Shown: positions 828-63,578, counted from the stretch's first letter. The stretch is DNA of 64,000 nt from Eukaryota sp. GEM-RC1 (GCA_040285855.1 JAUFOQ010000001.1:3162001-3226000), one strand, 5' to 3'. Translations and numbers: made by a program. Notes: generated by a model not told the origin, from the letters alone.

Positions 828-829
828 GG

Positions 830-15891: not shown

Positions 15892-15939
15892 TGTGAATAG
15901 AATTGTTTAAAATAATGCTTTTTCACATGCTGTTTTACA

Positions 15940-17042: not shown

Positions 17043-18290
17043 GTTACCTCCCATTTCAGTGATCACTTTCTCATTGTCTGATTCTTACACAACAGTATCT
17101 CAATACACAGCAGTACTCAAGCAAAGCATCGCTTCGGATTCTCCTTTCATTGTTGTCAAACACTGTTCAAAGTTACACACACTTCTCCTCAGTACTTTTG
17201 ACGTAGCTCTTTTCATCTACATTGATGCTCCTCTTCATACTGAACTTAAGGATCTCCTTCTCTCTCCTCACATAACCAAGGCACATTCATCACCTCCAAT
17301 CAATCTTGTTATTCCTTGACAGCTGGCGTTCAAATTTGCTTTTCTATTTCAGAGAAACAATGTGATTGTAACGAGTTGTATGTTTTTCAAAATTTTACAT
17401 TCTTAATAACTTGTTCTGTTAAAGGTACTCGAAAACTTTCTTAGCTGATATTTTCAAATACAAATCTAAATCAGTTATTCATTCTTGAACGACTCATGTT
17501 GAAGGACGAAACATTTTAAGCAGAATTATTTAATGTTGAGTTCATGCAATCTACCCCACAAGTTTCTTTTGATTGCAAAATCCCTAAGACAGAATCAGAA
17601 TTGAAAAGTACTGTCATTATTAATACTCCTTTTGAAAATATGTTCACTCTTTTGTGTAAGTTACCCCCAAGTTATTTGTATATTTTCCCTGCTTTAACTT
17701 AATGGAACTTCCTTACCACAGCTTGTTCTTTTTCTACTTCATCTTGACATGTTAAAAATTTAAAGCAAGTTGTCCAACTGTGGGGCTTGGAAGAATTGTT
17801 TGAATTTGTTAGTGATACTGATTTAAATAACAATATTGATTGTCATGATGACGTTATTTCCCTACTTAGAGTCGTCTTTGAGGGAGTTTTGTTCTCAGGA
17901 TGAAGTTTGTATACAGAATGGTGCTCTCGTTGGATGTTGATACCATGTTATTTTCAGAGTAAATCTTTCACCTGATTTATGGTAAAAGTGGCAAGTTTTC
18001 AGTAGTTTCTAGATGTATTTTATCAAGTTAAATCTTGGAGATTTGGTGTTCCTTTTGGATGTTTACACCCAGTGCTTAAGATATTGTCCAAGTTTTTGGT
18101 CTTCTCTTTTCTTTATTTTACAACCCACCTACGGTTCTATATGATTACCAGTGTAAATTGACTGTTGATTTCAATTGTTTGCTGTTTGACAATAGTTTAA
18201 TGGAAGATGTTATGAACCACTTTATGAGTGGAAAAATCATCATTTGGTCAAATCTGACACAGCAGTTTTTTAAATCATTTGGATAATTAA
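17043..18290 (+). pseudogene. Pseudo-exonuclease family copy A (internally deleted, in-frame stops)
   Basis: Matches the start of copies B and C, then jumps at about 17298 to their C-terminal part; multiple stops and indels. Confidence 0.85.
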
Positions 18291-21506: not shown

Positions 21507-21537
21507 AATTAATTTTTGATTCCACAATTTAAAATCA

Positions 21538-26664: not shown

Positions 26665-29600
26665 ATGGTAGGCTTACACAAACTCAGTTCTTATTCAAGC
26701 TGTACCTTTCAGACTCTTCTGACTCCGATGATGACGCTGTAAGTTTAGCATCATATTCTTCAACCAATCTGGCAGATTTGAAACACCACCAGTTTTTCCA
26801 GGAGTTACCTCCCATTTCAGTGATCACTTTCTCATTGTCTGATTCTTACACAACAATATCTCAATACACCGCTGTACTCAAGCAAAGCATCTCTTCGGAT
26901 TCTCCTTTCATTGCTGTCAAACACTCTTCAAAGTTACCTGCACTTCTCATCAGTACTCCTGACGTAGTTCTTGTCATCTACATTGATGCTCCTCTACATG
27001 CTGAACTTAAGGATCTCCTTCTCTCTCCTCACATAACCAAGGTACATTCCTCGCCTCCAGATATCAAAACTCTCAACAGAGTTCTTAATGTCACTATTGA
27101 TCCTTCGATTTCTGTTACAACGAATCTTAACCAGATTAGAATCATCAATCTACACCGATCTGGATCAAAACTTAATCTTAAGAAACGTAAAAGGGCATGG
27201 TCCATATTTGCTGCTCTTGGCCTCACCCCGATCACTGTTTCACTTGATATAGAAAGTGGTCAGCAAGTCTACAAAGATATACTATCTGTCTTTGGTATCG
27301 CCTTTTATCATCACCTAAGTCTTGTTAAGAAATTCGATTCAGTTCCTATCCCAGTTGATCATCCTTGTTGTTTCTTGTCTTCTTCACCTTATGATCTGAT
27401 TCAGTTGAACTTAAGTGAAACCTTTGCTTTCCGTCATATTGTACCTCATATTTGTCAGAATACAAATCCCACTTGTTGGCTTACGGATATTGAACCTTTC
27501 TGTTGCGATCTCCATGCTCATCACTTTCTTATTTCGTGTGACGTGTTCCATCAACGTCCACATTTTCATTTCAACAGTTATTTATCTCCGTTTGCTCACT
27601 TTATCTACTCTTTTGTGTCTCATGACAACAACAAGTCTATCTTTGAGTCTGTTCAACACTCGTCATTTGATTACTCAGACCCAGTAAGTGTTGTTGAAAA
27701 CTGCTTAAAAGCTCTTCTTGATTGCCTAAAATCTTTGAATCAGAATTATAGAAATAAGAAACTAGAGGTTTTATCATTGTTGAGGGAACCAAATAAGCAT
27801 CGTAATTTCACCCTTCTTGTGCTACATAATCTCTTGGTTTTGAATCTCAGGATTGACTCAACAAAAGTCAATGATTTGGTTGTTACTGAGTCAATGTTCA
27901 ATGATATTGATAAACTTTTTTGTTTTCAGGATATTCTTGATGGTTTAGTAATTGACTTTGTTTCACAGTTCCTTGATTCGAAACAGAGTATCATAACTCC
28001 AGCAGTACCCGCAGCATCACCTGGTTTTTCGTCAACGACAAGTGACAACGATAAATCAATCAAACCTCTAGTCAACGCAGACCAATCAGACTGTGGTGAT
28101 TCTCCAAACGGCAATGATGACGAGATGTTTTTTGATTGTATTGATACGTCATGTGATGAAAACCATCCATCATTATCCAAATTTTTAAATTCTATACCCT
28201 CTAAAAATCCCAGAGTTTTAATTCTGGTCAAGGCTGTTGCCATGGTTGTTGATACTGTGTTTTTAGTTACAGATACTTGCAGTTTAAAGGTTGCTGTTAA
28301 ACCTGATCACGTCCTTCCTTCCTCTATCGTTGAGCTCTTCTTGGATGATGACGTCATCAAAGAAATCATTTCTACGCAATTTTCTTTGTCAGATTTTGCT
28401 TCCTTCTTTTCATTACCTATATTAGAGTCTTTTACTGATCGCACTTTATTTTTCAGGAAACGACTTCCCTTGTTTTTCAGTGATGAAAATTTTAAAAAAT
28501 GTCAAGATTCTGATGAATTAGAGCTGAATTCTTGGTTGGTCAGTGAACGAAACTCTACAAAATTTAATTTTTGGTTAAGCAATCTCAAACTCCCTAAAAG
28601 CGTAAAAAATCACCCAAATGTTTTATATAAATTAGCACGTGGATCTTTGGAATATTTAAAAAATTACTTGGACGAAAGCAAACCCAGATCCTTTTCCATT
28701 AAGTTTATTCAAGAATTACCTCCCATTAATGTACTAATTTTGTCCATGTCTGCTTCAAACTCAATATTATCTCAATACATTACAGTACTCAAACAAAGTA
28801 TCTCTACTGACTCTCCATTCATTGCTATCAGTCACTGTGGTCCGCTCCGGGCAATGTTACTTAGTAATTCGACAGTAGTCCTTGTCGTTTACCTCGATGC
28901 TCCTTTGCCTGATGAACTCAGGGATCTATTGATCTCTTCTCAAATAATCAAGATCTCTTCATCACGTCAGGATATCCACAATCTCAATTGTCAGTTTAAG
29001 ATCACGATACATCCTTATGTTGAAGATGAGTTCAAAGTCAATCAAATTAGACCGGTTTCTCTTCAATCTGGGTCACAGCAAAAGCCTAAAGATATTAACA
29101 AAGTCTGCACCTACATGACTGTCCTTGGTCTAACTCCGATTGAACCTTCTCTCGTGAAAGAAGTGTCCTCTACAGTCTATAATGCTATACTATCTGTCTT
29201 TTGTATTGCCTATGATCATGAGCTGAAGATTGCAAAGGGAATCTCTTCAGATTCATTTGATAAACAACCTTGCTCAAATAACAGCAATGATGACGAGATG
29301 TTTTTTGATTGTATTGATACGTCATGTGATGAAAACCATCCATCATTATCCAAATTTTTAAACTCTGTGTCATCTCAAAATCCCAGAGTTTTAATTCTGG
29401 TACAGTCTGTTGTCATGGTTGTTGATACTGTGTTTTTAGTGACAGATACTTGCACTTTACAGCTTGATGTTAAACCTGATCACATCCTTCCTTCCTCTAT
29501 TGTTGAGCTCTTAATGAATGATGACGTCATCAAAGAATTCGTTTCTACAGAATGTACTTTAACCGATTTTGGTTCTTTCTTCTTTGTTTCCAGGTTAGAG

Positions 29601-30985
29601 TCATTTATTGATCGTTCAGCATTTCTCCAAAAGGAATTTCCACTGTTTTTCACTAATGAAAAATTTCAAAAATGTCCAAAAAATGTAAGATCAAAGTGGA
29701 ATCGTTGGTTGAAAAAGCTGAAATTTCCCAAATGTTTAAACCACCACTCAAGTAATTCCTATAAAATAGCACGTGGATCTCTAGAATTTTTAAAAAATCA
29801 TAGCGATGACGTGAGACCCCAATCATTTTCAATTCCAGTAGCTTCAGTATCGCAAGATGTTTGTAAATTAATTCAGTGTCAATCGCTTATAGATCAAAGT
29901 CACTCAATCAGTTTTGTAGATCCCATGCTACCGGTCAATCTCAATGATGTGATATATCGTAATGATTTTTTAAAAATTGTAGTAGTGAAAAGTCAATCTT
30001 GTTATCCCCAGACAGCTGGCGTTGAAATTTGTTTTTCTTTTCACAGAAACAATGTGATTGTAACGAGGTGTATGATTTCCAAAATTTTAAATTATTAATG
30101 GATTGTTCCGTTAAAAGTACTCGAAAACTTTCTTGGATGATATTTTACATTACAAATCTAAATCAGTTATTCATTCTTGAACGACTCTCATTGAAGGACG
30201 AAACATTTAAACAGAAATATTTAAATATTGACTTTCTGCAATCTACCCCAAAAGTTTCTTTTAATTGCAAGATCCCTAAAACAGAATCAAAATTGCAAAG
30301 TACCGTCATTATTAATACTCCTTTTGAAAATGTGTTCACTCTTTTGTGTAAGTTACCCCCAAGTTATTCGTACCTTTTCCCTGATTTAACTAAATGGAAG
30401 TTCTCTACTACAGCTTGTTCTTTTTCCACTTCATCCTGTTTTGTTTCAAGTTTAAAGCAAGTTGTCCAACTGTGTGACTTGGAAGAATTGTTTGAATTTG
30501 ATAGTGGTACTGTTATTGATAACATCATTGATTGTCATGATGACGTCATATTTCCATACTTAGAGTCGTCCTTGAGGGAATTTTGTTCTCAGGATGAAGA
30601 ATATATCCAGAATCATACTCACTTTGGAGATGGATTTGAAGGTATTTTCAGATTAAATCTATCACCTGATTTATTAGTAAAAATGGCAAGTTTTCAGGAT
30701 GTATTTCAGGTATTTTGCAAAGTTAAATCTTGGAGATTTGGTGTTCCTTTTGGATGTTTACATCCACTTCTTAAGCAATTGTCCAAGTTTTTTGGTGTTC
30801 TTTTTTCTCTATTTTACAACCCACCTACGGTTCAATATGATTACCAGTGTAAATTGACTATTGATTTCACTCGTTTTCTTTTTGACAATAATTTAATGGA
30901 AGATGTCATCAACCACTTTATGAGTGGCAAAAAATCATTTGGTCAAATTTGACAGAGCAGTTTTTCAATTCATTTGTGTAACTGA
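26665..30985 (+). CDS. Pseudo-exonuclease (DEDDy-like fold repeat) protein, copy C, about 1400 aa; 32-nt intron 26668-26699
   Basis: 1106-aa and 307-aa ORFs joined by one missing T near 30038 (copy A shows the in-frame form). ALLISTPDVVLVIYIDAPLHAELKDLLLSPHITKV resembles the WRN/RNase D exonuclease core; internal duplication present. Confidence 0.7.
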
Positions 30986-32906: not shown

Positions 32907-34328
32907 TTATTGAAGTTTGTGGAATGAAAACAATGAATCATTTTCAGAATTGTTTGCGTTATTAAACATTTCAGTCAGATACATTTCAGCAGCTTCTTGC
33001 AGTGCTTCCACTGCATCTCGCGTGATGTTTAAATCATCACCATCTACATTTTGATGCAAAATTTCTTTAACTAAATTTAAAAATTCTTTCCGTGGAAAGT
33101 ACAGGTCAGTTCGTTTTTGAGCGTTCCTGATTTCACTCATACAGTGAGTTTGTGGATCATTACGTCGTAACATTTTAAGGAACGGATTTGCTCAATGAAA
33201 GAACGAAAATCCTCCAACAATCTGGTAACTTTTTCAAAACCATCACGAGGTTCTGGTTCTTGATCACTGTATTGATAACTTTCACACGACTCATTCATAT
33301 CTTCAACCTCATCATCAGAGGTTTCTACAGGGATGAAGCAGACATCATAATCATAATCACTATCAGAATCTACCTCCATTTCAACTTCACTTGAGTCAGG
33401 GTCACTCACAATGAAACCGAATTCTTCAGCTGGAGATTCGCCAACATCATCACCAACTTCTTTACATAACAACGTCAAATCAACTGTAAAGGATTTGAAC
33501 TCATCAATAGTTCTCGGCAAATCACTATACGTACCAACACAATAATCTACTTCTTCGTTGAAATATTGATAAAGATATTCGATCTCGTGATCTTCCTTGT
33601 GAAAGTAGGAGATGAATCTTTGAAAATTCTCCATCAATTCAGTTTGATGCAAATAGTGTAAGAATTTTTCAATTAAATCAACACTTTGGAAGAAAAATGC
33701 TTTGTTCAATTCGAACTGCAGACATGGCTTACCCTCTGCATCTTCCGAAGGCACATGACGGAGGACTGTGGTTTCCTCCAAGTTAAGATCACCGGTATCG
33801 AACGAAAGATCCTCGAGTTCTCTCAAAAAGGAATCAAAGAAGGAAAGGAACGCGGTGACGTGATCCTCCAGTTCTCTCCATCCAGGGAGTTTGTGGTTCA
33901 GGAAAGATTCAGGATCAGAGACGAATACAGATAAAATATCTAGAAGATTCCGATTCTTGACAGGGACAGGTAAGCAAGGACCCCGACAGAACGGGCAAGT
34001 GGGAGAAGGATCAGCAGAAAAGCATTGAAGACACATTGTATGTCCTTCGGAACATACAATGACTGGTACTCTCCCCCTCAGAGTCAAAGAGGAGAGTACA
34101 GATTCCACAAAAGATATTTGGATACAGCGTTTGTATCAAAGTCGGTGCTAGATGGTTCGAATACACGTTCCCTTCATCGTCATTCATTTGCTGATTGTTC
34201 TGGTAGAGTTGGGAAATGGAATCAGATAGGACTGGGAATGTTACTTGGGGTTGATTAGTCGAAGTTGTCCCTGAGGGACAAGAAGCCCTAGGAGCGGCAG
34301 GTCGACTGGTTTGTTTAATTCTTGCCAT
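32907..34328 (-). CDS. H3-tail / RING / acidic / histone H3-fold chimera, copy 1 (two 1-nt frameshifts; fold appears to lack alpha3)
   Basis: MARIKQTSR start; C3HC4 RING; RRNDPQTHCMSEIRNAQKRTDLYFPRKEFLNLVKEI...DLNITRDAVEALQEAAEMYLTEMF aligns by eye to H3 alphaN-alpha2. Confidence 0.75.
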
Positions 34329-34439
34329 TGTGAACAGAAGTGTTTGAAAAGAAGCTTCATGATCTAGTTTTTCATGACTTCATTTTTGCTATTATTCAGT
34401 ATTTGATTGGAAACAACCCTACAGTGTACATACTAGTAC

Positions 34440-35654: not shown

Positions 35655-36760
35655 CTAGGTTTCATAATCATAATCATCAGAAGAAATACCTTCCATTTCG
35701 ACCTCACGTGATTCAGGTTCACTTAGAATGAATTGGAATTCGTCATCTTCGGATTCACCAACTTGATCATCATCAACTTTCTCTATAAATACCAGAAATC
35801 TTAAATCAATCAAAAACGTCTTAAATTGTTCAATCGATCTACGCAAATCACTTAAGGAACCAACACAATAATCAACTTCTTCTTTGAAATAATCAAAAAC
35901 GTATTCGATCTCGTGATCTTCCTTGTGAAAGTAAGAGATGAATCGATGACAATTCTCCATCAATTCAGTTTGACGCAAATCGTGTAAGAATCTTTCAATT
36001 AAATCAACACTTTGGGTTAGAAAACCCTTGTTCAATTCACAATTCAATGTTGATAGAATATAGAACATTGTAAATAAAATAAGTGTACTCCTCAGTTCTT
36101 GAGATCTTTGTTAACTAATGAAGGTCAAAGAAACTTCCTTGATTCTCGAAATAAATAGATTCAACTTGAAACTGATCACAACAATTTAAAATCCATTTTG
36201 AGGTACTTAGGTTTGAATTGAGAAGCATTGAAAATGTTGGACAATTTGAAATTGTACTATCACTGCTGACAAATGAAAACACATATTTGACAAGAGTGCT
36301 TAAGACGAACTCAAAAGGTGAACTAATACTAATACATCTCAACGCTGTCAAAAACAATGAATCATAAACAAAGGAAAGTCAAAGAACCTTCCTGAGCAGT
36401 AAACACTAACATCATTCATTAAAAGAGCAGAAGTAGATATCTCACAGAAAAAATCCACGACAATCTTTTCTTCTTCTGGAAGAATTATCGCCAAAACAGT
36501 GCGGAATTCTTACTGGTTCCATAAACACACCTTTTCTACCATTCCCAGACCGAATTGTCCCATTATCACTTACATTATCACTGGAGAAAGTGATGGATTT
36601 CCCTCCGGTACTACTGATGTGATTGATCATAGGAGTAAGTCCTCCAAAGTGCAGAAAAGCACTGAAGGCACATTGTATGTCCTTCCGAACATACAATGAG
36701 TGGTACTCTTCCCTCAGAGTTGAAGAGGAGAGTACATATCTCACAGAAAAGCTGCTTGTG
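35655..36760 (-). pseudogene. RING/H3-chimera copy 2 remnant, interrupted by about 600 bp of unrelated sequence
   Basis: 36650-36750 matches the RING start; 35655-36040 matches the middle domain (FHKEDHEIEYVFDYFKEEVDY); no histone fold follows. Confidence 0.75.
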
Positions 36761-37164
36761 GACACAAGCAGGAAAGTTCATTGAAAGAAGTGAATTTGCA
36801 ATGTTCTAAAAGTTCGTCTATGTTTGCATACAAATTTGATAAGTACAGTCTTCTTATTAAGGTCTGCCAAAATGCTTGTACCAATGGGAGGATAGACTGT
36901 ACGTACGTCACTTAGTTTTTTGTTCTAAAGTCTGATGATTTAATACACAAATACACGGTCAAACAAGTTCGAACCTAGAACTTGAATAGTTCCACATTTG
37001 AATATTAGCAAATAGTTACTACACGATTGAACAGGTAATAAGGTATAATTGGTATCGTGTAAATAAATTGAAGTTTGCGCCATAAAAACAGCGAGTATAT
37101 ATAGACACCAAATACCTACCTTCTGGTCTTCTCGTTAAAAAGGAATCGGACAATCTTGAAAATA

Positions 37165-38559
37165 CTAGTGATTATGATGTAATCGACTAAGACGTAAAGC
37201 TTCTTGAAATCGTAGTACAGTTAGGCAATCCGATCCAGAACCTACTTCTAAATTATTGGCATGGTGAAACACTTCAGTTAAATGAATCTCAGCAGCCTCT
37301 TGCAGTGCCTCAACTCCATCTAGTGTGATGTTAAGATCATCACCATTTTGATTCAAAATTTCTCCAACTAGATTTGCGAATTCATTCTGTGGAGCAAACA
37401 TGTCAGCTCCTCTCATTTCCTCGCGAATTTCACTCAGACAAAGAGTTTCGGGATTTGTAAATAGTAACATCTTAATAAGTGAACGAATTTGTTCAATTAA
37501 ATAACGAAAATCCTCCAACAATGTGGTAACTTTTCCAAAACCATCACGAGGTTCTGGTTCTTGAGCACTGTGCTGACCACACGACTCATTCATATCTTCA
37601 ACCTCATCATCAGAGGTTTCTACAGGGATGAAACAGACATCATAATCATAATCACTAGAAGAAACTCCTTCCATATCGACCTCACTTGATACCAATTCAC
37701 TGACAATGAAATCGAATTGGTCATCTGAAGAGTCACCAACTTGGTCATCAACTACTTCTTTAGATACCAGATCCGAACCGATTGAAAATATCTTAAATCG
37801 TTCAATTGATCTACGCAAATCACTAAAAGAACCAACATAATACTCAACTTCTTCTTTGAAATAATCAAAAACGTATTCATTCCCATGATCTTCCTTGTGC
37901 ATGTATGATAAGAATTTATGAAAATTGTTCATCAATTCAGTTTGATGCAAATCGTGTAAGAATTTTTCAATTAAATCAAGACTTTGGGTTAGAAAGACCT
38001 TGTTCAATTCAAACTGTGATAAGGGCTTACCATCTGCGTCTTCCGATGGCACGTGACAGAGGACTACGGCTTCCTCCAAGTTAAGTTCTCCAGTATCGAA
38101 ACCCAGACCTTCTAGTTCCGTTAAGAAGGAATCAAAGAAAGAAATGAATGATGAGACGTCATCCTGAAGTTCACGCCATCCAGGTAGCTTTTGGATTAAA
38201 AAGGACTCAGGATCAGAGACGAAAACGGCTGTAATATCTAGAAGATTCCGGTTCTTCACAGGGACAGGTAAACGAGGTTCCCGACAGAATGGACAAGTGG
38301 GAGAAGGATCAGCAGAAAAGCATTGAAGACACATTGTATGTCCTTCGGGACAAACAATGAGTGGTACTCTTCCCTCAGAGTTAAAGAGGAGAGTACATAT
38401 CTCGCAGAATATTTTTGGGAACAGAGTTTTCTGGTAAAGTTCGGAAACGATTCCATCGGTATTAGATAAAACTGGGAACGTTATCATAGACGAAGTTGTC
38501 CCTGTGGGACGAGAAGCCCTAGGAGCGGCAGGTCGACTGGTTTGCTTAATTCTTGCCAT
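37165..38559 (-). CDS. H3-tail / C3HC4 RING / acidic linker / histone H3-fold fusion protein, copy 3 (intact, 464 aa)
   Basis: Uninterrupted ORF: MARIKQTSRPAAPR; CEIC-x14-CPEGHTMCLQC-x8-CPFC; D/E-rich linker; PETLCLSEIREEMRGADMFAPQNEFANLVGEILNQNGDDLNITLDGVEALQEAAEIHLTEVFHHAN...LTVLRFQEALRLSR. Confidence 0.85.
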   Translation of the reverse strand: MARIKQTSRPAAPRASRPTGTTSSMITFPVLSNTDGIVSELYQKTLFPKIFCEICTLLFNSEGRVPLIVCPEGHTMCLQCFSADPSPTCPFCREPRLPVPVKNRNLLDITAVFVSDPESFLIQKLPGWRELQDDVSSFISFFDSFLTELEGLGFDTGELNLEEAVVLCHVPSEDADGKPLSQFELNKVFLTQSLDLIEKFLHDLHQTELMNNFHKFLSYMHKEDHGNEYVFDYFKEEVEYYVGSFSDLRRSIERFKIFSIGSDLVSKEVVDDQVGDSSDDQFDFIVSELVSSEVDMEGVSSSDYDYDVCFIPVETSDDEVEDMNESCGQHSAQEPEPRDGFGKVTTLLEDFRYLIEQIRSLIKMLLFTNPETLCLSEIREEMRGADMFAPQNEFANLVGEILNQNGDDLNITLDGVEALQEAAEIHLTEVFHHANNLEVGSGSDCLTVLRFQEALRLSRLHHNH

Positions 38560-38939
38560 TGTGAAAAGAATTGTTTGAACAGAAGTTTCTAGTTCATGTT
38601 CTGATTTCTTTTGCTATTATTCAATATTTGATTGGAAACAACCCTACAGTGTACATACTAGTACATCTAATAATCGATATCCTCAAAGATCAAATAGACA
38701 GTTGTATTTTGAAATTCTCACCAACCTTATCTTCACAATGCCTTCAAGAGATAATAGAGCATTACAAACAAAAGTCATCATACCTTTAAAGATAGTAAGG
38801 ACAAATTTCAAAAATCTATGATCAAAAGTCCGACATAAGATGTTTTTCCTGTAACAATCTTCACAAAGAGTTCAAGTAATGATGCGCAGAATCAACTAAT
38901 GAGCCGTACAGCTAATATACAAATGGCTACAACAAGTAA

Positions 38940-40474: not shown

Positions 40475-43400
40475 TTATTCCTGAACATACGTATTCATCA
40501 GCTCAAAAGTCGCCTTTTTGAGCTCCATTTTCTGAGCCAAAACACTGACTGATCCCAATTCATCACCAATCAAAACGATTGGATGACCAGCAGACCAACT
40601 ATTCGTGATTAAACTAGCTTTACTTGGAACTAAAACAGAAGCAGAATGACGTAGCCTTGGTGCTGGTTCCCCTTCTAACAAAGGAACACTTAAATCAAGA
40701 GAAAATACAAAAGTTGATTCTTTGAAACCACATTGAGAATACTTGGTGTGAAGGTAGCCATTGTATCTGCAATGGGAGCGTCAAAGGGAAGGGAGAATCT
40801 GAATGAGTAATGGGGATGGAGACTTACAAGGGTAGATGAGGCGCTTTGGTTGAGTTGGGAAGGGAAAGATAGGGGAAATTTAAAAATTTCGACAAAAAAG
40901 TTAAATGATTCGTCGTCTTGTTGGATGATTGCAACAAAACTGTTAGAGAACGTGACAATAGGAGGTTTTTGACCTAAGTTGCAAATCAACTCGTAACCAA
41001 GAGTCGGTCTAGCAGTACAGATCAATCGACAACCTACCTGATCAACAGCAATTGCAAACTTCTCTTTTGAACAAATTTTAAAATAAGAAGGATTATTTAA
41101 AACTGTGAAAGACTTGCATACTCTAACAACATTTTCTTCTCTTTTCAAAACATACAGAACCCCAGATTCATCACAAACAAGCAAGTTTCCGTCAACTTTA
41201 ACCTTAACGTCAACAATCCGCTTTCCCTCACAAATCTCGACAGAACACACTGGAGACGTATTAACAATGTCTACAATGTAGAGAAAACCATCATGAGAAC
41301 CACAAATAAGTTCGTATTTAGTAGTTGAGAACTGAGCAACACTGACTGCACCAGGGATAGTAAACTCATAGAGTTGAGATCCCGTGTCCAAATCAAATAT
41401 TATCAAATTTTCAAAAAAGTCAGCAATTGCGACTTCGCCTTTAGATTCGTTCACTGTAATACAAGATAAAGTATTTGAAACATTCTGAATAAACTTGTTG
41501 ACTTCACGACCATCACTCAGAGTTGATTTCGACTCCCCACTTGATCGTATCAAATTCATTGAAGAATGAACGACTGAATGACACTTAGTTGCCAAATCAA
41601 ATACAGTGAGTCCTTCTAAATCAGCAACTACTGCAAATCGACCGTCCTCGCTGATACTAGTCTTGGCAACAGTGATTGAGAGCATTTTCTCAGTATAAAA
41701 AGCAGAAAAAGGTTTGGGTCTGGTGGGCCAAACACGTGCGAAACAATCTTTCCCTCCAGAAATACAAAGACTTTTGGAGAAGTCTAGGGAAGTCACGGGA
41801 CCAGAGTGAACGTGATAACCCATGGACATTTTGGTCCACGTCTCATCAGAAACAAACACGTTACCATCAGAAAGACCAACAAAAACAACTTCCAGCACAG
41901 TATCATCATGATCAATCCACCCATGACTAAATGACGTCACCGCCACGTCATCAGTCGATGATAGAGTCGTACCTTCCAAAACCAACGAAATCGATCTAAT
42001 TGGAGTGGTGCTCAGTAAGAAAGTTCGTATCTTATTGTTATAACACACTGTCAATCGAGAACCATCAGAGTTATACCGAACCTTATTTAAATAACGAGGT
42101 GAATAAGCTCCAGGTCTCGAGACTTCCAACGACTGAGAGAACTTTAGAGTGTTTTGATCAAGATCAAGACTCAAAAACACCAAACGAAGACTAGCAGTGT
42201 TATTAGCTATTAATAAAGCTATACTATTACCATCAGGAGCCCATGAAAGATCAAGAATAGACTTTAAATCAGTATCAACCAGAGATAAAGGAACGTGTTT
42301 GATGTCACATAGTGATAACTGATCGTGTAGTAGTACAATTGACCAAAGTCTTAGAGAAAGAGGCGCGAGGGTCTCGTAATTATTGGTATGAACTGTTAAG
42401 ACGCGGACTACTACTGTTGCGTCTTCTCTTTTGATTGTTAACCCTGATGAGTCATCAGTTACGTGATGTGATTGAGTTTGGGGAAGACTAACACCGTCTA
42501 GTAGTGAAATAAAACCGTTTCCAGGTAGCATTAGAGAAATAACAGCTTCATTGGGCTGATCAAAATTGATTGAAGTCGGAGCATCATCGACTTTGATTAC
42601 AAGAAAAGATCCAACAGAGAACAAAAGCAGAAAGCTCTTATTACATCTACCAAAGGTTGGAAGCACTGAGAATGAAGAGAATGCGTTAAAACCAAAGATG
42701 TGGGAGTATCGTAAAAGAACATTGTTTTCATGTACAAGGGAGGATACAACGGGGGTTAGAGAGGGGGATGAGTGAGAAGAAACGGGGGTTGAGGGGGGTG
42801 CCGGCAAAACGTGTCTAGCGGTGTTTCTGGTTGATCCTAATTCCTTACCACTTTTTAGAAAACTTGATAATTGTTTTAAAGTACGTGGATCAGCAGTGAA
42901 ACGTTTGCTTCTAGCCAACTTCTCAGGAATCCAGTCGTGTGAGTAGACTTCATTCCAAGGAAGTGATCGAGGAGGAGAAGGGAAAGCAACAGAGGGAGGA
43001 GGAGCATGGGCAACGTATAAAGCATTTGATAGAAAGATAGAACGAAATGAGATGGAACCTCCTATTGTAAGAGACTTGAGAGATCTAAAGTCATATGATG
43101 GGGATGGATAAGACTTGTGAAGATCAATGGCGACTTGTACCCATTTAGAAACATCAACAGAAGAAGGATATGTTACTGCTAGAGGTGCAATACGTGGTTT
43201 AGACTTTTTAGACAGTGAAGAGGAGATACAGGTGCGGTAGGAAGTACCAGAATGTGATTCGGTGTCAACTGTAATTATGAAAGACCCATGAGAACAATAT
43301 TGTATATAGAGATATCGTTGGGAATAATCAAAAACATGAGGTGACTTGGGAATTCGAACAAAAGAGTCTGAAGAATGAGATCCTCTTGTTCTAACTGTCA

Positions 43401-43530
43401 TTTTGTTGATAATTGGATCAATTAGAGCTGAAACACTCCCCCGTTTATCAATATTTTGAAAGACAAAAACAGAACATTCTTTGATTATATCGATATGAGG
43501 TAAGAGCTCCACTTGAGGGGAAGAAGCCAT
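40475..43530 (-). CDS. WDR90: WDR90/POC16-like protein (CFAP20-type domain plus WD40 repeats); 1-nt frameshift near 40710
   Basis: N-terminal SFVRIPKS...RYLYIQY...WVQVAIDL...LKSLTIGGSISFRSIFLSNALY (CFA20 domain); HSGPVTSLDF...SGGKDCFARVW WD repeats. Likely start MASSP at 43530; the frame is open to 43611. Confidence 0.7.
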
Positions 43531-43609
43531 TAGATGGTCTAAAGATTGGTTGACAAATTGGTTCAGTGCATTTGTTTCATCATCCAATCTTTGACACTTC
43601 CACAATCTC

Positions 43610-44284
43610 ATGTCTTCTATTGAGTTTTGGCTTCGAGAATTAGAATCTGAACTCGACTATATAGATACCACTCTTTCTTCTGCATCTTCTGGTAATCTTC
43701 CCAATGAAAAACTCACACAAATTGTTAAAACAGTCGAGGATAAACTTCACAGAACAAATTTGGACATCCGACAGGCCAGAACTATGCTGGTAGATGTTGA
43801 CTGGAAACGTGATGAATACGAAGAACGTTTGAATGAAGCTGCTTCTAGACGAACTAAGCTTCAGGAATTCCACCAAGACGTCAAAAGAAAGTGCAATCGT
43901 AGTAACCTAATAGGAGACAAGGAAAACCTGACTGATGGACAAAAAGTTCGTGCAGCACAGATCATAGCAGAAGATACTTCGAAGAAAATCAAGTATGGGC
44001 GAAACATGCTGGCCAACATTGAATTCACTGGTATAGCGGCCGGTGATGAATTACGTTCTCATACGCAGACACTGGAACGTGTCCACAATAGCCAACAGGA
44101 ACTGAGGTCGGAACTGAAGATTGCTGATCAACAAATACGTGTGTTCCTGCGGAGTATGATGACCGATAAGTTCATTATGTTAACATTGCTAACAATTGTT
44201 CTTGGATTGATATTTATTATTATCTACTCGGTCTTCAATCCTGATAGTGATCTTAATGTTCCAGATGAATTTAAACCACAATAA
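43610..44284 (+). CDS. NPSN-like Qb-SNARE
   Basis: Helical N-terminus, SNARE motif (GIAAGDELRSHTQTLERV), then RSMMTDKFIM plus a TM helix and NP, as in NPSN SNAREs. Confidence 0.75.
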   Translation: MSSIEFWLRELESELDYIDTTLSSASSGNLPNEKLTQIVKTVEDKLHRTNLDIRQARTMLVDVDWKRDEYEERLNEAASRRTKLQEFHQDVKRKCNRSNLIGDKENLTDGQKVRAAQIIAEDTSKKIKYGRNMLANIEFTGIAAGDELRSHTQTLERVHNSQQELRSELKIADQQIRVFLRSMMTDKFIMLTLLTIVLGLIFIIIYSVFNPDSDLNVPDEFKPQ

Positions 44285-52252: not shown

Positions 52253-54502
52253 TCAAACACTTTCCACTTTCCATTCATGATTTTGACCAAATATCATCAT
52301 TCCAAATACCAAATTACTAGGAATATCAATACTAAAAGTAGTTGTACAAGTAGAAGGTTTGAAGTAAGCAATACCATTAGAAAAACTAACAGTAATTGAT
52401 TCTCCTTTGGAAATTGAAGTGAACATTGGATCTGAAGGGGAGAAAGTTCCTGAACTGGAGTCACCTCTAGGACCAATACAAGGAAAAGGATAACTTTCAT
52501 CTTGAACGTGATCTCTTTCCTTCCAACCAATGTAATCATAGTTAGTTGTGTCAGCAGTATTTAGCCCTGTGAACTTAACGGAACAATTGTTTGGAATACT
52601 GACTTCTACAAAACTATTAACACAATCATTGTGCCCTTCCTTTTTACAAATAGTATTATTATTTGATAAGCATAGTTCGAAACCACAATTATCAGGATTG
52701 AATTTACCAATGCGAGCTTCTTTTTTAATTTTTTCATTTTCTTCAAACTTTTGAATCCAGGGTTGGATCCACTCCTTTAAATCTGACAACTGTTTCTTCA
52801 CTTCCTTTAGTTCCTGGTGATGTTGATTCAAAGTACTTAAAGACTGATTTAATAAGTTAGCTGTAAGAAAAGGGGCAAGGCGAGAATCAGTGGTCAACTT
52901 TGATAGAATATTTAAAATATCAATACTGTCCGTGCTGGATTGCAAATCTAGAGTAAGAATTTCGTCCTCAAAATTCTTTACTGTCCATAATTCTGTTTCT
53001 TTCCACGATTTTTCAAAAGAATTAATGAGAAATAGATCATAAGAAGAAGGAAGATTATTTTTTACATTTTTGAAAGTTTCAGGATTAAGATAAGGGCAAT
53101 TGGAATTCTTCGAAAGATCACTTGCTTCAATTATCAAGGAGAAATTCTGAACTAAAAAATCAATATCTGAAATTTTCCATCTCTTATGATTCAAACAACT
53201 CTGAGATAAACACCACAAAAACCATTCATCTGGTATGACGTTAACATTTTGAACCCCCTGAAAGACTTTCATTGACCAAATGGATAGAAATTGACAAAGG
53301 TAATCCTGATCAAATAGTGGTTGCATAATAGTATAAATTTTGGTAATATTTTGGTCATTTACCATCAATTTTTCAAATATTTGACTCAAAATATGGTAGT
53401 CTTCTTCAAAAACTTCATTGGTGATGGATAAAGTTAAACATTGTAACAACCAAGAACTATCAACTCTCTCAATTAAATGAACTATAAATGAAAGAGGTAA
53501 GGGGAATGGAGATGGTAGATCTTGGTCTTTCAATAATTCACTAAATAGATTTAGATTGCCTTGTAACATATTAAGCAGATTTCGTTCTGAAATAGTTTTC
53601 AATAAACGAAATATATCTCTAGTAGAAGAAAGAGATGAAACAAAGGAATTACACTTGTCCTTCAGGTTTTTTACTTGAAAATAGACCGATAATTGATAGA
53701 AATCAACGACATTGTTGAAGTCAAGATTGATCGCTTCACCAAGGAAATATTTAAAAAAGATCTCAAAATTTAATCCGGAAACACCACTAAACTCTTCACT
53801 GTAAGTAAACTTTCGTTCGTTAGAGTCAGCGAAACTTTGACAAAACAGATTTTTGAAATATTCAGAAGAACAAATCAACATCAAAGAGCTAATGGTTAGA
53901 GATTTATTCTTATAGGACAACATAACATCTCGCTCAACACTTGACCTGATAGTTTGTAAGACTTCTTCAGACTTCAATTGAAGATGACATGATTTGGAAA
54001 ATCCTTCGGACAAAGCCTTCTGGATGGATTCGTTCAAAGAGGAAAGATCAAGAGCAGAACAGATGGCTAGAACAGCACCAATGATTCCAAAAGTAAGTTG
54101 AAAGGATTGTCCATAAAAGTAATCAAGAATGTCGAAGAAGATATTGGCATCAGGAACAATAAACTCCAGTTGGGGGAAGCTTACTTCAGGATCGGAGCTG
54201 AGTAGCTTTTCTTTCAAAACTGGACTGAAGGAAGAGAGAAAAGAAGAATGACAAGGATAGGATTGGCCGTGGAACACGATAACCTTGTCAGTAAGAAACT
54301 CCTTTTGTTTGTTGTAGTAGAGTTGGGAAACGATGTCAACAGAATTGGAGGATAGTTCTTTATACTTACTCAAGGTTGGTTCATGTGGGACAATAGTAGG
54401 CGTTAGAGCTTCTGGTACAGAATTACTATGAGCAGGCACAAAGGATGATGCTCTTGATAGTATAGATTGAAATTTGGATGGTAATCGCGTTGGTCTGGGC
54501 AT
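52253..54502 (-). CDS. BTB-BTB / coiled-coil / SPRY-like protein (intact, 749 aa)
   Basis: Two BTB domains, helical region, coiled coil and C-terminal beta domain starting FNPDNCGFELCLSNNNT. Confidence 0.85.
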   Translation of the reverse strand: MPRPTRLPSKFQSILSRASSFVPAHSNSVPEALTPTIVPHEPTLSKYKELSSNSVDIVSQLYYNKQKEFLTDKVIVFHGQSYPCHSSFLSSFSPVLKEKLLSSDPEVSFPQLEFIVPDANIFFDILDYFYGQSFQLTFGIIGAVLAICSALDLSSLNESIQKALSEGFSKSCHLQLKSEEVLQTIRSSVERDVMLSYKNKSLTISSLMLICSSEYFKNLFCQSFADSNERKFTYSEEFSGVSGLNFEIFFKYFLGEAINLDFNNVVDFYQLSVYFQVKNLKDKCNSFVSSLSSTRDIFRLLKTISERNLLNMLQGNLNLFSELLKDQDLPSPFPLPLSFIVHLIERVDSSWLLQCLTLSITNEVFEEDYHILSQIFEKLMVNDQNITKIYTIMQPLFDQDYLCQFLSIWSMKVFQGVQNVNVIPDEWFLWCLSQSCLNHKRWKISDIDFLVQNFSLIIEASDLSKNSNCPYLNPETFKNVKNNLPSSYDLFLINSFEKSWKETELWTVKNFEDEILTLDLQSSTDSIDILNILSKLTTDSRLAPFLTANLLNQSLSTLNQHHQELKEVKKQLSDLKEWIQPWIQKFEENEKIKKEARIGKFNPDNCGFELCLSNNNTICKKEGHNDCVNSFVEVSIPNNCSVKFTGLNTADTTNYDYIGWKERDHVQDESYPFPCIGPRGDSSSGTFSPSDPMFTSISKGESITVSFSNGIAYFKPSTCTTTFSIDIPSNLVFGMMIFGQNHEWKVESV

Positions 54503-54565
54503 AGGTATGAAGAATTTTAAATTTAAAGTGTTCTGTTAAGCTGATTATTAAAAGATGGCACTACT

Positions 54566-56549: not shown

Positions 56550-59274
56550 CTACACTAAACTCCATGAAGACGATGCATCTACTCTTTTGTAATGACCAGC
56601 GCCTTTTCCTGCATTGTTATAAACGGTCCAAAAATCTCCAAAAAAGGAATCAGTATATATGGAAACAGCCGGGCCAATCTTTACCGACACCAACGGCTCA
56701 TTATCGGCAAAACTATTGTCTCCAATGAAGTGCAGAACGTTGGGGAATTCAACAGCTTCAAGTTCGTTAAACTGAAAGGCAGAATGTCCTATAACTCCAA
56801 CACTAGAGCCAAATATCACATTGGTGAGGGCATTATGCATAAAGGCACGATCATTGATCTCAGTAACACTATCAGGAATTTGAACAGACGTTAACATGTT
56901 ATTTGCGAATGAAGAAATTCTAATTCTCTGGAGGTTTTCCGGAAGAGTAATCGAAGTGAACTTATTTTGATTAAAAGCACTAGATCCGATAATTACTACA
57001 CTTGAAGGGAAAACGATTTCAGTCAATTCATTAGCTGCAAAAGCCCTATTACCAATGGAGGTGATACTTTCAGGCAATGAAATCTCTGTCAATTTGTTAT
57101 TATCGAATGCGGAGCCTGGAATTGAAGTCAAAGGTCCGATAAAACAACAGATTCCAACTGATTGTTTTCGAATGATCTGTCCCCCATGGAAGACACAGAA
57201 TTAGGAATAATAATGGAGGACAAGAGATTATCACCGAACGCTCTTGAACCAATGGTAGTTAGAGTAGCTGGAAGATCAAGATGTACCAACTTATTTTCAG
57301 CAAAAACATTATCCGAAATGTGATTTAAGTTAACTGGGAATTGAATATAAGCGATGAGATTACGTTGAAAAACCGCAGTCTCAATGGTTGTGATCAAGTC
57401 ATGGAGAACAATTGATTCTAACTTGTTGTCAAAAAGGCTTGATGTTCCAGAGAGACAACATTGTCTGGAATAACGATACTTGAGAGTGCATTTTCCATGA
57501 AAGCACGTGCAGGAATAAAGGTAACACCACCAGGAATTACCAATGTCTCAATGTCGTTCATTTGAAAAGCTCCTTCTCCAATGTGTACTAAGTTTGTAGA
57601 CAGCGTTACACTGGCAATGTTGTTTTGCTTGAATGCTTCGGCCTCTATGATTTGAATAGTATCTGAAAAAACCACAGAAAGGATTCTCTTGTCGAAAAAA
57701 GCAGACTCACCAATGACAGTGATGACGTCACCATTAACACTGGGAGGAATGATGACGTGTAGACCCGCAGAAGTGTTGTAGCTAAATATAGTGCCATTGC
57801 CAAAAGTAAAACCATGTCTAGACATAGCCACTGATTCAGTTTTAGAGTGAGTCAATTGGACAGTAATACTGAGGTCTAGATAATCAGAATGCATTAGCAA
57901 TAATTCAATATCACCTGGACTCAAATCGGAAAATAGAACACGACCTTGCTCATCAGCCTCAACAATCAAATCTTGATTGATGAGCTTTACACGTGGAATG
58001 GACACTGGCTCATCGTTGGCAGCGTCATAGATGTAAAGTTCCAATGAAACCAATGAGGGAGAAGATGATCGTAGAAGGAAGAAGAGAAGAAGAGAAGCTG
58101 CAATGACAAGGAGGATGCAAGAAATGGCAATGGTGATGTTCCGTTTGGTACCAAACAAGTTGATGTTGTTCTTCACTTTGGTAACCCATGTAGCTCTAGA
58201 TTCTTCTTGGGACTCAGAAGTTTCTACAGATATCAAAACATCATCGGTGTTTTCCTGCATTATTTCATGGTTCAAACTTGAGATGAACGTATCCAATTTG
58301 ACAGTAGAAGTTCCCGAATTTGGGGCCAATTGTTGAAGAGCAGGGTTTTGGTCAAATACGTGTTCATAAGCAACAAAGTATTTGCTAGAAGAATCAATGG
58401 TAATGGCAGGTTGATGAAGAGAAGTAATTAGCACAGCACTGACTTTGAGAGAAACAATGTCTTTTGTAAATTTTTGGGAGAATTTCTGTTCGACAAGCGA
58501 GAGTTGTCCCCAAGGATCTTGAGGAATGTCATGGCCCAAGGAGAGGAGATGTTTACGATATGCTTGGATCAACTCTTTCACTTTTCCAGCATCATGAAGA
58601 GATTTCGTGGTGTCTAAACCGATATCTTTGGCAACAGAACACAAGTCCTGACAAGAAATATCCAACACTGTACATGCAAAGGTCTCAATGAATAGGCGAT
58701 AGCATTGATAGACGCTAAATGAATCAGTGATATCTGCTAGTTTTTCAACAGCTTCATCATTCAGACCAATGTTGAGAACTATGGTGAGTGCCAAGTGCAG
58801 AGCTAAACAAACCAATTGCGTGGATGTCTTCCTCATTATTATTGGTCAAAATATCAAGTCCTTGTTCGACAGTGAGGCAGAGAGGTTTCTCAGAGGAACC
58901 AAACATCAAGTTTGTGGTCTTTTCAAGGTTCTTAATGAGTTTTACTAAATCATGATTTCTGTTGGCTGATGAAGAGCTGTTCAATGACAAGGATTGATTC
59001 TGTAATGAAAGAACGCGAAGCGTGACATACTGGTAGTTCGTAGCTGAAACCAGGAGCCTGTAGATTGTTTGGCAGGCTCATATACAATGAAGATGGTGAT
59101 GGGAAATGATGTTTCCACAAATTCTTCCATGTGATCTCTGATCTTGACTCTGTAAGCCTCGTATAGATCAAAAATAGGAAGGATAGGAAGGTCTATATGA
59201 AGACGTCTCTGAGTATATGATGTGGAAGGTATCGTTCCCAACCTACTACCTTGGAAATTGAACACGTGATCCAT
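56550..59274 (-). CDS. Membrane protein: degenerate PPDK N-domain, TM helix, carboxypeptidase-regulatory-like domain, BspA (TpLRR) repeats; introns 59000-59030 and 58779-58812
   Basis: The spliced product contains APGF...LEKTTNLMFGSSEKPL...VLNIGLNDEAVEKLA...YQCYRLFIETF...IPQDPWGQL (PPDK-like), TM ITIAISCILLVIAASLLLFFLL, and many L..I.IP.SV..IG..AF..N repeats. Two T-run frameshifts (near 57433 and 57131); the exact 5' structure is uncertain. Confidence 0.75.
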
Positions 59275-60043: not shown

Positions 60044-62241
60044 TCAAACACATTCCACTTTCCATTCATGATTTTGACCAAAAACTGTCATTCCAAAAAC
60101 CAAATTACTAGGAATATCAATACTAAAAGTAGTTGTACAAGTAGAAGGTTGAAAGTGTGCTTTACCATTAGAAAAACTAACAGTAATTGATTCACCTCTG
60201 GTAATTGGAGGGAAACTTGGATTTGAAGGGGAGAAAGTTCCTCTACTGAAGTCACCTCTAGAACAAATACAAAGACTCGGTTCAGATTCATCTTGAAGTC
60301 TATTTCTGTCTTTCCAACCAATACAGTCGGTGATATCATCACAATGATGATCATCTAACCTTGTAAAATTAACAGAACAATTGTCTGAATGTTTTACTAC
60401 CACAAAACTAGCTTCATCGCCTTCAATTCCATTCTTTTTAACAACAGTATTGTTATTGGATACGACAAGTTGTGATCCACAAGTAATATAATCAAAAGTA
60501 CCAATAATTGTTTCAATTCGTCTGTCAATCTCTTCAGGTTTCTCAATGAATATCATTACAGATTGTCTTAGGGGATCTATTTCATTGTTGGGAGTCAACA
60601 CGTCTTCTGATTCTTGGTGGTGAATCGATGCACCTGCATAGTTATCCACTAAGTGTGTAGCATGGAAAGAGTCATGTGGTTCATCATCAATCAATTTTGA
60701 TAGATTCTCCAGAAAAGAATAGTGTCGGCAAGGGAACCAAAATTAAGGTTCAATAGCAAATCTTCAAACTGGGGTACCGACCATAAATCAGTTTCCCTCC
60801 ATGACTTGAGAAGGCAATTGCACAGAAAAGTATCATACAAAGGAGGAAGAACATTTTTTAAATTTGTAAACACTTGAGGGGTGAGATAAGGATAATTGGT
60901 CACCTCCACTATGTCATTTGAGTCCATTATTACAGCAAAATTCTCAACAAAAAAATCATTATTTACAAATTTCCCTCCCCATTGATTGTAACTGTTTATA
61001 GATAAGCTCCATAAAAACCACTCATCAGGAATACAACGAACATTTTTGATCCTCATAAAGACATCCATTGACCAAGAGAATAGCAATTCATGAATGATGT
61101 TTTGATTGAACAAAGGAAGCAAATGTTGGTGTTTCTGTTGTATATTTTGATCTGTAACTACAATTCTTTCAAAAATTTCACTCAAACTGTGGTAGTCTTC
61201 TTCAACATCTTGGTGGCTGATAGACACACTCAAACATTGTAACACCCATGAAGGTCTGACCACACTCAATAGAAAAGAAATAAATGAAAGAGGTAAAGGG
61301 AAGGGAGATCTTAGAACTCGGACGTTGTTTAATTTTTCAATAATTTGGTAATTCCGGACCAAAATTAGTAGAGCATCTCGTTCTGCAATAGTTTTCAAAA
61401 GACAAAGTATATCTCTGGCAGACATAAGAGAAGAGACAAACGAATCACACGTTTTCTTTAGGTTCTTAACAACAAAGTACACTGACAATTGATAGAAATC
61501 AATGACATTATTGATATCAAGATTGAATGATTCACCAATGAAGTAATTGAAAAAGATTTCAAAATTTGAGTACGAAACACCAGAAAACTGATCCTTGAAA
61601 GAAAATTTTCGGTCATTTGAGTCTGCAAAATTCAAACAGAACAGATTTTTAAAAAATTCAGAAGAACATATCAACACCAAAGAGCTAATTGTAAGAGATT
61701 TATCATTGTAGGATATCATAACATCTCGTTGAACAGTTGATTTGATAGTTTGTAAGACATCATCAGACTTCAACTGAAGATGACGTGATTTGGAGAAGCC
61801 TTTTGACATAATATTGTGGATGGAGTCTGACAAAGAGGAAAGGTCAAGAGCAGAGCATAAGGAAAGAACATTAGTCATGTTATCAAAAGTAAGTTGAAAG
61901 GGTTGTCCATAACAGTAGTCTAGGATTTGGAAGACGAGATCGGCATCGGGAACAATAAACTCTAGTTGGGGGAAGTTTACTTCAGGATCGGAGCTGAGTA
62001 GCTTTTCTTTAAAGACTGGACTGAAGGAAGAGAGAAAAGAAGAATGACAAGGATAGGATTGACCGTGGAAGACGATGGCCTTGTCAGTGAGAAACTGCTT
62101 CTGTTTGTTGAGAAAGAGTTGAGATACGATATCAGCAGAATTGGAGGGTACCTCGCTGTGCTTGCACGAGGTAGACCTTGAAGCTTCATGTACAGAATTA
62201 TCATGAGCAAGCACAAAAGAGGAAACATTTGGTCGGGACAT
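60044..62241 (-). CDS. BTB-BTB / SPRY-like protein; 1-nt frameshift near 60714
   Basis: Paralogue of 52253-54502; adding one T gives ILFLENLSKLIDD and joins the two ORFs. Confidence 0.8.
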
Positions 62242-63578
62242 TGGAAGAACTGAAATTTAAAATATTCAGCAGTCAGTACGAAAAGAGGGCACGTGTTCCT
62301 GATTTTTATTAAAATTCTTGTTTCTACTCCGACCAACAGCAGTCAACCTAAATTGAGCTGGAAACTTCAAACACAAATTCTTTACACCTACTAAATAGAT
62401 CAGATTTTCGTTGAGCTGTCAACAGCTTAGCCATATGAGTAAGTCAAGCCAAATTTGGATATGACTTGAGCCGAGTCGTTTGGCAGCTCTATATATGTAC
62501 ACCAATTTACCCTTATTGTCTGGTTGAAATATCAATTATAGAACATTCACTTTATTAATCTACTTTCTTCATCATCACCAACTTCGATCTTTAGGGTTTT
62601 CATTTCCAGTAAAACTTGCTCCAAACTATAACTTAATCATCTCTCATCTAGGATCTAATGCTCAGTATTGCTCGCAAGAACTCAGTGTAGAGCATATTTC
62701 GCCTTTTGTTGCAATATAATATGCTTTTATTAGGGCTTTAATTGTTTGACGGTCAACCTGCTAAGAGGCAACAAATCCAATCGTTGTAACAAGGTATAAC
62801 TGCCAGTTAGTGAATATCAGAAGGGTAAACTCTATTGTTATTGTTTTGATTCTTTTGCTGTATCATTGAGGTGTAAGTAGAGATCACCTATTTATTGAAA
62901 AAAATTGTTTTCTATTCCAATAATGACCAGTGGCAAAGATAGTGAGTTCTGTAAGTGTTCCAAGAGCGCCACCGCTTTAGTTTTTTTCTTAATTGTAATA
63001 GTTTGGAAAAGGATAACTAACAATTTGACTTGACAGTAGAGTTATTTCCTTTTCACAAATCCATTCATAACTCACATGATGTTCTGATAAATTGTTAAAT
63101 ATTTCATAAAAGTGGATCGTACTCATGAATTCAATTACAATATTCAAAAGATACAGCATTGTCTCCGTGTTCCTGTAATCACTATTCATTACTAGTATTT
63201 GTAAGTACATTTTTGTGTCAGAAGAATTACTCACTTCAAGATCAATAAACATAAGAAGGTTAGAAAGGACTGTTCAATGACTAAAGCAGAGTCGAAACGA
63301 CATGACTAAATCGCATGTGCCAACAAGTAGATGATAAATCAAACGACTTGACAGTTAAATCGAATCTACTTTAGCTCTGCTTGGATGACCCCAAATCGAC
63401 TTAAAGTCGAGTAAATTAACAGTCCTAATTGTTACACATGTGATAGACTCGACTCAGACTGTAAATTGAAATCAATTTGCAATGACAGAATCAGTGATAA
63501 AGACTTTTTGAATGGTGTTTATCTTCATTTAGTCAGTAAACTTTGATCAAGATTGGAGTCTGGATTGTTCTTCTGTTA

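Follow-up and report, generated by a model that had tools for sequence, protein, structure and literature searches.

A degenerate pyruvate phosphate dikinase domain joined to a BspA-type repeat region in a family of predicted membrane proteins of Eukaryota sp. GEM-RC1

Analysis of a 64,000-nucleotide stretch of the Eukaryota sp. GEM-RC1 genome (GCA_040285855.1, JAUFOQ010000001.1:3162001-3226000; hereafter the window) and of its relatives revealed a protein family in which a domain derived from pyruvate phosphate dikinase (PPDK), stripped of most of its nucleotide-site residues, is joined through a single membrane helix to a beta-sandwich stalk and an array of BspA-type leucine-rich repeats. 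Its architecture, its multigene character, the residue losses and the likeness of its fold to PPDK are established by the evidence below, and by analogy with known BspA proteins its members are likely to be type II adhesins or prey receptors. A sequence-only reading of the window had proposed such a fusion of a PPDK-derived pseudo-enzyme, by way of one membrane helix, to a BspA-type region, and our analysis upheld it. The assembly comes from Skoliomonas sp. GEMRC, described in PMC11316075 as a free-living, bacterivorous metamonad of soda lakes whose genome was built from Nanopore reads with Illumina polishing at 116x, and the organism is also described as a feeder on bacteria in PMC11603281.

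Results

Gene model of the window protein

On the minus strand, positions 56550..59274 hold one gene model and two downstream frames. When 59081-59031, 58999-58813 and 58778-57418 are joined, the translation is identical, letter for letter, to the NCBI protein GEMRC1_001369 (P0011) of 532 aa, and both introns that the sequence-only reading had removed, intron 1 (59000..59030, minus strand, 31 nt, GTATGT..TACAG) and intron 2 (58779..58812, minus strand, 34 nt, GTTTGT..CATAG), are part of that model. Exon 1 (59031..59081, minus strand) opens with a start Met that stands opposite the internal Met29 of PPDK, and exon 2 (58813..58999, minus strand) encodes an NBD1-like part of PPDK in which Glu62 (58867) replaces the arginine of the SVRSG motif. 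The start at 59081 is common to the NCBI model and five paralog models and corrects an earlier placement of the start at 59274; the ATG at 59274 lies in another frame, which meets a stop at 58981 and has no likeness to PPDK. One frame, uninterrupted by introns, covers the PPDK-like part except its first third and continues through the helix and the stalk into the first repeats. At the position of intron 2, two paralog loci have isoforms with and without 11 extra residues, and these pairs suggest that the paralog models are transcript-based; the annotation pipeline, according to PMC11316075, drew on RNA-seq and PASA.

Homology and fold of the PPDK-derived domain

The PPDK-derived region spans residues 1-292 (58143..59081, minus strand) and corresponds to about positions 29-339 of PPDK, with a likeness that is firm to about residue 236 and weak for the last 55 residues. 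P0011 matched TIGR01828 with an E value of 8e-15 and 53.9 bits, below the curated cut-off of 843 bits, and it was undetected by Pfam PPDK_N at E<=1, its likeness to PPDK being visible only with the full-length NCBIfam model, in PDB searches and in structure. When the exon-3 piece was searched against PDB sequences, the 10 best of 16 matches were all PPDKs, and a two-member profile matched 11 PPDK sequences with E values of 2e-6 or lower, no other match lying below 0.9. Comparison of a 6-member profile with 29 PPDK domains gave a probability of 99.8% over 254 columns, aligning residues 1-264 with PPDK 29-324 at a column confidence that is low past about residue 215.

Structural comparison pointed to the same fold. 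Atlas models of P0011 and P0012 matched PPDK_N clusters with TM scores of 0.60 over 210 residues and 0.61 over 202 residues, respectively, and a family-only AlphaFold model, whose inner domain is confident for residues 81-183 only, matched PPDK at E 3e-4. The model of paralog P0016 aligned with PPDK over 173 residues (Z 19.2, rmsd 2.9), some rows reaching PPDK 316-323, although with 25 PPDK rows among the 31 in its alignment it is biased towards the PPDK fold; three alignments that misplaced residues 205-290 were left out of folding. The colinearity with PPDK claimed by the sequence-only reading therefore lies far beyond chance, as judged from TIGR01828, the PDB matches, the profile-profile comparison and the TM score of 0.60, and a PPDK profile does match, namely TIGR01828, though not PPDK_N. 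The nucleotide-binding domain of PPDK comprises three subdomains at aa 1-340 (PMC5371819), and the piece found here is most of that domain minus its first 28 residues. In five of the six aligned members the KR before the helix coincides with the KR of GKRT at the end of the PPDK domain, which would place the fusion junction at the domain boundary.

Loss of nucleotide-site residues

For the residue comparison and the tree we used 21 PPDKs, which remained from 29 motif-complete matches after 8 near-duplicates were dropped. All seven family members lack the GGKG loop, which lies upstream of Met29 in PPDK and so falls outside P0011, whose start Met aligns to that residue, and all seven have lost SMPG. 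The SVRSG arginine is retained in one of the seven (P0018), the DIEF glutamate and the LQTR arginine are both gone in all six aligned members, the SGTGV strand is deleted in the family, and the LQTR glutamine is perhaps retained in three members. In P0011 the GGKG lysine is deleted, the SVRSG arginine is replaced by Glu, in line with the loss noticed earlier, the SMPG loop is replaced, and the DIEF glutamate and LQTR arginine read as Leu and Lys, two calls that lie in a weaker part of the alignment. Lys22 and Arg337 of PPDK, mutants of which are known from PDB titles, presumably act at the nucleotide site as well. Arg95 and Glu324 of Flaveria PPDK contact ATP directly, as reported in PMC5507339; the former is the SVRSG arginine (Glu in P0011), and the position of the latter is Leu in P0011.

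Among the 102 columns that are at least 90% invariant in the 21 PPDKs, 25 are retained in the window protein and 77 are lost, the retained ones being distributed as 7/13 in NBD2, 10/26 in NBD1a, 2/19 in NBD1b, 5/37 in NBD3 and 1/7 in the K-loop part. The paralogs are 53% alike in NBD2 and NBD1b. What the PPDK-derived domain keeps is, to judge from these columns, its structural core, and best of all the helical NBD2. Pfam found neither PF00391 nor PF02896 in P0011, P0012, P0014-P0018 or P0166, which bears out the absence of phospho-His and pyruvate-binding domains. With the enzyme fold kept in the Atlas model and the catalytic motifs lost from the sequence, the domain has the make-up of a pseudoenzyme, and in the window protein it is, judged by its residues, probably dead as an enzyme. 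In the tree the family forms one side of a 100/99 branch against the 21 PPDKs; since the tree includes no PPDK of GEM-RC1 itself and has long branches, it is silent on the donor of the PPDK piece.

Membrane helix, topology and stalk

Residues 296-314 (58075..58131, minus strand) form the transmembrane helix, a predicted signal anchor with basic residues on its N side, whose mean hydropathy of 2.99 compares with 1.36 for the next best stretch and which agrees with the single helix described before. None of the family members has an N-terminal signal, and in all seven the 20 residues that precede the helix include 3-7 K/R, against 0-1 after it. The C side is free of cysteines in the five long members, and its ratio of D+E to K+R is 2.3-4.9, compared with 1.5-1.6 on the N side and 1.1-1.5 in four control proteins of the window. 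With 23 N-glycosylation sequons where 38.7 would be expected, the C side shows no enrichment, and the sequons lend no support to its being outside. The lack of an N-terminal signal, the basic N flank (7/7 members), the acidic and cysteine-free C side and a kinesin domain on the N side of the helix in one paralog model (P0166) together favour an N-in, type II topology, the orientation put forward by the sequence-only reading.

The stalk of the window protein, residues 322-400 (57817..58053, minus strand), is a single beta-sandwich, probably of the carboxypeptidase-regulatory/transthyretin-like kind, and the paralogs have from 2 to about 6 of these. In carboxypeptidase D it is the transthyretin-like domain that the stalk model matched (TM 0.82, normalised by target), and paralog stalks score above the PF13620/PF13715 cut-off; the assignment proposed earlier draws on this fold match and on the paralogs, as residues 322-400 of P0011 itself gave no Pfam CarboxypepD_reg match at E<=1.

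BspA repeats and two frameshifts

The BspA (LRR_5) repeats run through three frames of the minus strand. Repeats 1 to mid-5 (57431..57726) belong to the gene model, whose frame continues to a stop at 57420-57418; repeats mid-5 to 9 (57134..57430) follow in a second frame and repeats 10-16 (56673..57131) in a third, which ends in a C-terminal cap and stop codon (56550..56672) common to the intact paralogs P0012, P0014 and P0166. Frameshift 1 (57431..57435, minus strand) is a T run and frameshift 2 (57130..57134, minus strand) a CCTTT run, each one base short of register. LRR_5 (PF13306), with a gathering score of 27.7, reached 65.9, 69.3 and 176.6 bits in these frames, and the repeat fold matches TpLRR and Bacteroides surface-protein folds. 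As assembled, the frame ends after 4.5 of the 16 repeats; with an X placed at each break, all 16 stand in exact 22-residue register and are followed by the paralog-type cap. The long array reported by the sequence-only reading is therefore present with its 16 repeats, but in three frames with two one-base breaks and not in one frame; that reading had overlooked both frameshifts and the multigene family.

The two frameshifts in the window copy are probably assembly errors and the gene intact in the cell, because they concern single bases in short runs with no in-frame stop in 822 codons, because six similar one-base breaks occur in other duplicated genes of the window (near 22069, 22583, 22984, 14998, 60717 and 34077), and because fragmented BUSCO models are given as 9.6% in the assembly against 3.0% in the transcriptome (PMC11316075). 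A stop was present in only 2 of 21 non-self matches of the duplicated window genes. Against an error speak the Illumina polishing at 116x and the frameshifted BspA pseudogenes described as common in Trichomonas, with 98 entries (PMC2843621). The conclusion about the family is independent of whether these frameshifts are errors.

Neighbouring genes of the window

Copies of an expanded BTB-domain family (52253-54535, 60044-62256, 13325-15906 (-) and a remnant at 11203-11971), with a coiled coil, a conserved C-terminal domain and one-base frameshifts in two copies, adjoin the PPDK-BspA gene on both sides. A tandem, lineage-specific family at 37165-38613 (-), with copies at 32934-34388 and 35655-36799, combines in one frame a RING finger, an acidic middle and a C-terminal histone-fold match, which for the protein at 37165-38613 lies at the cut-off (PF00125, E 1.2e-6). 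The gene at 26646-30098 (+), with copies at 21513-23780 and 17041-17298, encodes an internally duplicated protein of 1150 aa with no Pfam match, the second copy having three one-base frameshifts and no in-frame stop. A gene with leucine-rich repeats and a ubiquitin-like part (9595-10899 and 11968-12432, plus strand), which we take to be tubulin cofactor E-like, is duplicated in part, the copy of its 3' region being 96% identical. A WDR90/POC16-like protein with a CFA20 domain and WD40 repeats lies at 40690-43656 (-), an integrase core fragment at 441-839 (-) matches PF00665 under the cut-off, and a frameshifted transposase-like remnant with no Pfam match was recognised by eye at 20736-21444 (-).

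The family in the GEM-RC1 genome

When 1.84 billion representatives and 5.8 billion clusters were searched, the PPDK-derived domain turned up at 8 loci on 6 contigs, all named GEMRC1: GEMRC1_001369 (the window gene), 007271, 007946, 004725, 012776, 002866, 008257 and 001524. GEMRC1_002866 is a fragment, with 133 aa at that locus. The helix is found at seven of the eight loci, BspA repeats at five, and three are complete and unbroken, P0012, P0014 and P0166 running in one frame from the PPDK-like domain to the cap; four of the seven helix-bearing models (P0011, P0015, P0016 and P0018) end abruptly. The order of domain, helix and ectodomain is repeated at 5 loci on 4 contigs. Six paralogs that we compared are 29-48% identical to P0011, with 23 invariant columns.

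The best 150 of 676 matches and the best 120 of 248 contained no member from any other species, a result to be read with the facts that 50% clusters hide members, that the 248-match search missed four known members and that the libraries may lack other Skoliomonas/Barthelona proteomes. The other examined matches among the best 150 of 676 were PPDKs by motif or Pfam, except for the stalk-and-repeat protein P0100. P0031, P0035 and P0124, in which PPDK is combined with a hydrophobic stretch, keep GGKG and the SVR-type arginine and have no BspA repeats, and they were therefore not counted as family; among them P0035, unnamed and 532 aa long, has an undegenerate PPDK N-domain abruptly joined to a two-helix membrane segment and is a possible assembly chimera. 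The model of P0100 (GEMRC1_008078), 995 aa long, consists of 11 CarboxypepD_reg repeats that are nearly identical to one another and ends in a short BspA stretch; it has neither helix nor PPDK part and may be the detached outer half of another member. A search of metagenome contigs with the family alignment gave 64 pattern matches, none confirmed as a related locus, and a query made of the cap and the repeats next to it gave 93 matches in prokaryote genomes, none confirmed, so that no ectodomain donor was found there.

A paralog model with a kinesin motor

The model of P0166 (GEMRC1_001524) runs, in order, through the PPDK-like region (28-270), a kinesin motor (317-645), a linker, a pre-helix segment of the family's own type (752-808), the helix, stalk, repeats and cap, the kinesin lying on the N side of the helix. 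The motor matches PF00225 at E 9e-49 and 166.6 bits against a cut-off of 29.3, and its P-loop GKT and switch I STRSH are present. Switch II reads DLAAPI and not DLAGSE, the motif called universally conserved in kinesins in PMC4383081, which is why the P0166 kinesin may bind microtubules without walking. Being one automatic gene model, the fusion may itself be a merged model; P0166 is possibly a single-chain motor-adhesin, and its kinesin hints at a microtubule link for the family.

Discussion

We consider it slightly better than an even chance (a probability of about 0.52) that prey or particles are bound by the repeats, either on the cell surface or in the food vacuole, and that the dead PPDK domain serves as a cytosolic scaffold towards the cytoskeleton or trafficking machinery. 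A copy of a PPDK gene would have been cut at both ends and then joined to a bacterial-type surface module; an internal Met would have become its new start, and the junction would lie at the KR that ended the nucleotide-binding domain and now stands just before the helix. The helix would serve as signal anchor, 1-6 beta-sandwiches would carry the BspA solenoid, itself variable, on the outside of the cell or within the food vacuole, and the solenoid would bind bacterial prey or particles, with the inner domain, in which NBD2 is best kept, binding cortical or trafficking partners. A role in adhesion is suggested because BspA proteins increase adhesion in trichomonads, as described in PMC6701047, and are expanded in the free-living Trepomonas, as described in PMC11437800. 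Tagged Trichomonas BspA was mostly internal, in ER, Golgi or lysosome, and not on the surface (PMC6701047), which counts against the surface-adhesin reading, and the SVR arginine of P0018, the four abruptly ending models, the DLAAPI switch II and the single automatic model of P0166 also count against this explanation.

It is also conceivable, if rather unlikely, that the BspA side alone works and that the PPDK piece is a passenger that supplies a start codon, introns and a soluble spacer forcing the N terminus in, with no particular partner, under birth-and-death turnover and with the window copy perhaps a true pseudogene. The very long branch from PPDK, the 77 of 102 invariant columns lost, the early ends of four of seven helix-bearing models, the 133-aa fragment at one locus, the P0100 model with a similar stalk and repeats but without PPDK part or helix, and the occurrence of the family in one genome only would all suit such a relic. 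Yet the domain persists near full length at seven loci despite 29-48% identity to the window protein, the 23 invariant columns fall mostly in the structural core, and a bare spacer needs no three-subdomain fold. That the PPDK-like piece and the BspA gene are separate and never form one protein seems scarcely credible; the assembly does have residual frameshifts, but in the window one intron-free frame leads from the PPDK-like part through helix and stalk into the first repeats, and 5 loci on 4 contigs share this order.

Two further accounts give the inner domain a ligand. A rebuilt cleft might bind adenylate, phosphate or pyrophosphate and tune adhesion or uptake to the energy state, as the fold retained in the Atlas models of P0011 and P0012 and in the P0016 model, the SVR arginine of P0018, the LQTR glutamine perhaps kept in three members and the open-close hinge of the PPDK domain (PMC5371819) might allow. 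We find this distinctly improbable, since the family has lost GGKG (7/7), the arginine (6/7), SMPG (7/7), the DIEF glutamate (6/6 aligned) and the SGTGV strand, and the cleft-forming subdomains are the least conserved. For the window protein, the nucleotide sensing suggested by the sequence-only reading is likewise unlikely, with GGKG deleted, the SVRSG arginine a Glu, SMPG replaced, and the DIEF glutamate and LQTR arginine lost. More improbable still is a dock or decoy that would capture the phospho-histidine domain of real PPDK, either bringing ATP production to the membrane or damping the enzyme, although in PPDK the docking position of the His domain is close to the nucleotide site (PMC5556012) and in the sister isolate RCL the PPDK gene ranks within the top 100 by expression (PMC11316075). 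In the family's domain, erosion is greatest on the conserved surface that surrounds the nucleotide site and receives the His domain in PPDK, and the PPDK dimer forms through the C-terminal PBD (PMC5556012), which is absent here; the proposed docking of native PPDK, taken as a like-with-like contact, is therefore unlikely.

Compared with PPDK (EC 2.7.9.1; TIGR01828, PF01326), the family shares the N-terminal ATP-grasp nucleotide-binding domain, colinear from about 29 to 339, but it is without the His and PEP/pyruvate domains, has lost nucleotide-site residues and is joined to a membrane helix. PPDK modules are reportedly reused in rifampin phosphotransferase and VadK, soluble catalysts with ATP-grasp and His domains; as in those enzymes the modules have come into a new role, but here only a dead domain is found, on a membrane protein. 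In receptor pseudokinases an enzyme fold that is dead forms the scaffold on the inner side of a receptor with one membrane pass, and fungal myosin-chitin synthase fusions place a cytoskeletal motor head on a membrane protein; their folds are unrelated to the metabolic ATP-grasp domain, kinesin head and BspA ectodomain of this family. With the membrane BspA-like proteins (TpLRR, PF13306) of Trichomonas, Entamoeba and diplomonads it has in common 22-residue repeats above the Pfam cut-off, one membrane helix and an expanded family in an anaerobic protist. The 193 helix-bearing BspA proteins of T. vaginalis are described in PMC2843621 as having N-terminal repeats and, at the other end, a cytosolic tail that bears endocytic motifs; unlike these TMD-CCT proteins, the present family has the reverse order, a beta-sandwich stalk and, on its predicted cytosolic side, a folded enzyme-derived domain. 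Literature searches at the level of listings gave no membrane BspA protein whose inner module is a dead nucleotide-binding domain of PPDK, and the main text of PMC11316075 does not mention PPDK, dikinase or BspA. BspA families anchored in the membrane were already known, as were enzymes derived from PPDK, and what seems to be new is a dead PPDK domain as the inner module of the former.

These findings describe, in one genome, a receptor-like family of recent origin and improbable composition, which combines the domain of a core glycolytic enzyme with a bacterial-type adhesin and has expanded to at least 8 loci with variable stalks and repeats, whose function we infer. That it amounts to a new class of single-chain receptors for handling prey, with a variable adhesin outside, a dead PPDK coupler inside and a kinesin in one member, is a bolder proposal that we regard as doubtful. 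Under that proposal, the kinesin-bearing member would couple captured bacteria directly to feeding-groove or cytopharynx microtubules, and if the P0166 model holds, a kinesin head and an adhesin on one chain would be a striking motor architecture. To our knowledge, the molecular basis of prey recognition and holding in free-living excavate flagellates is largely open. The ancestral job of BspA proteins, which are known mostly from parasites, is debated, and this family provides candidates from a cultured organism.
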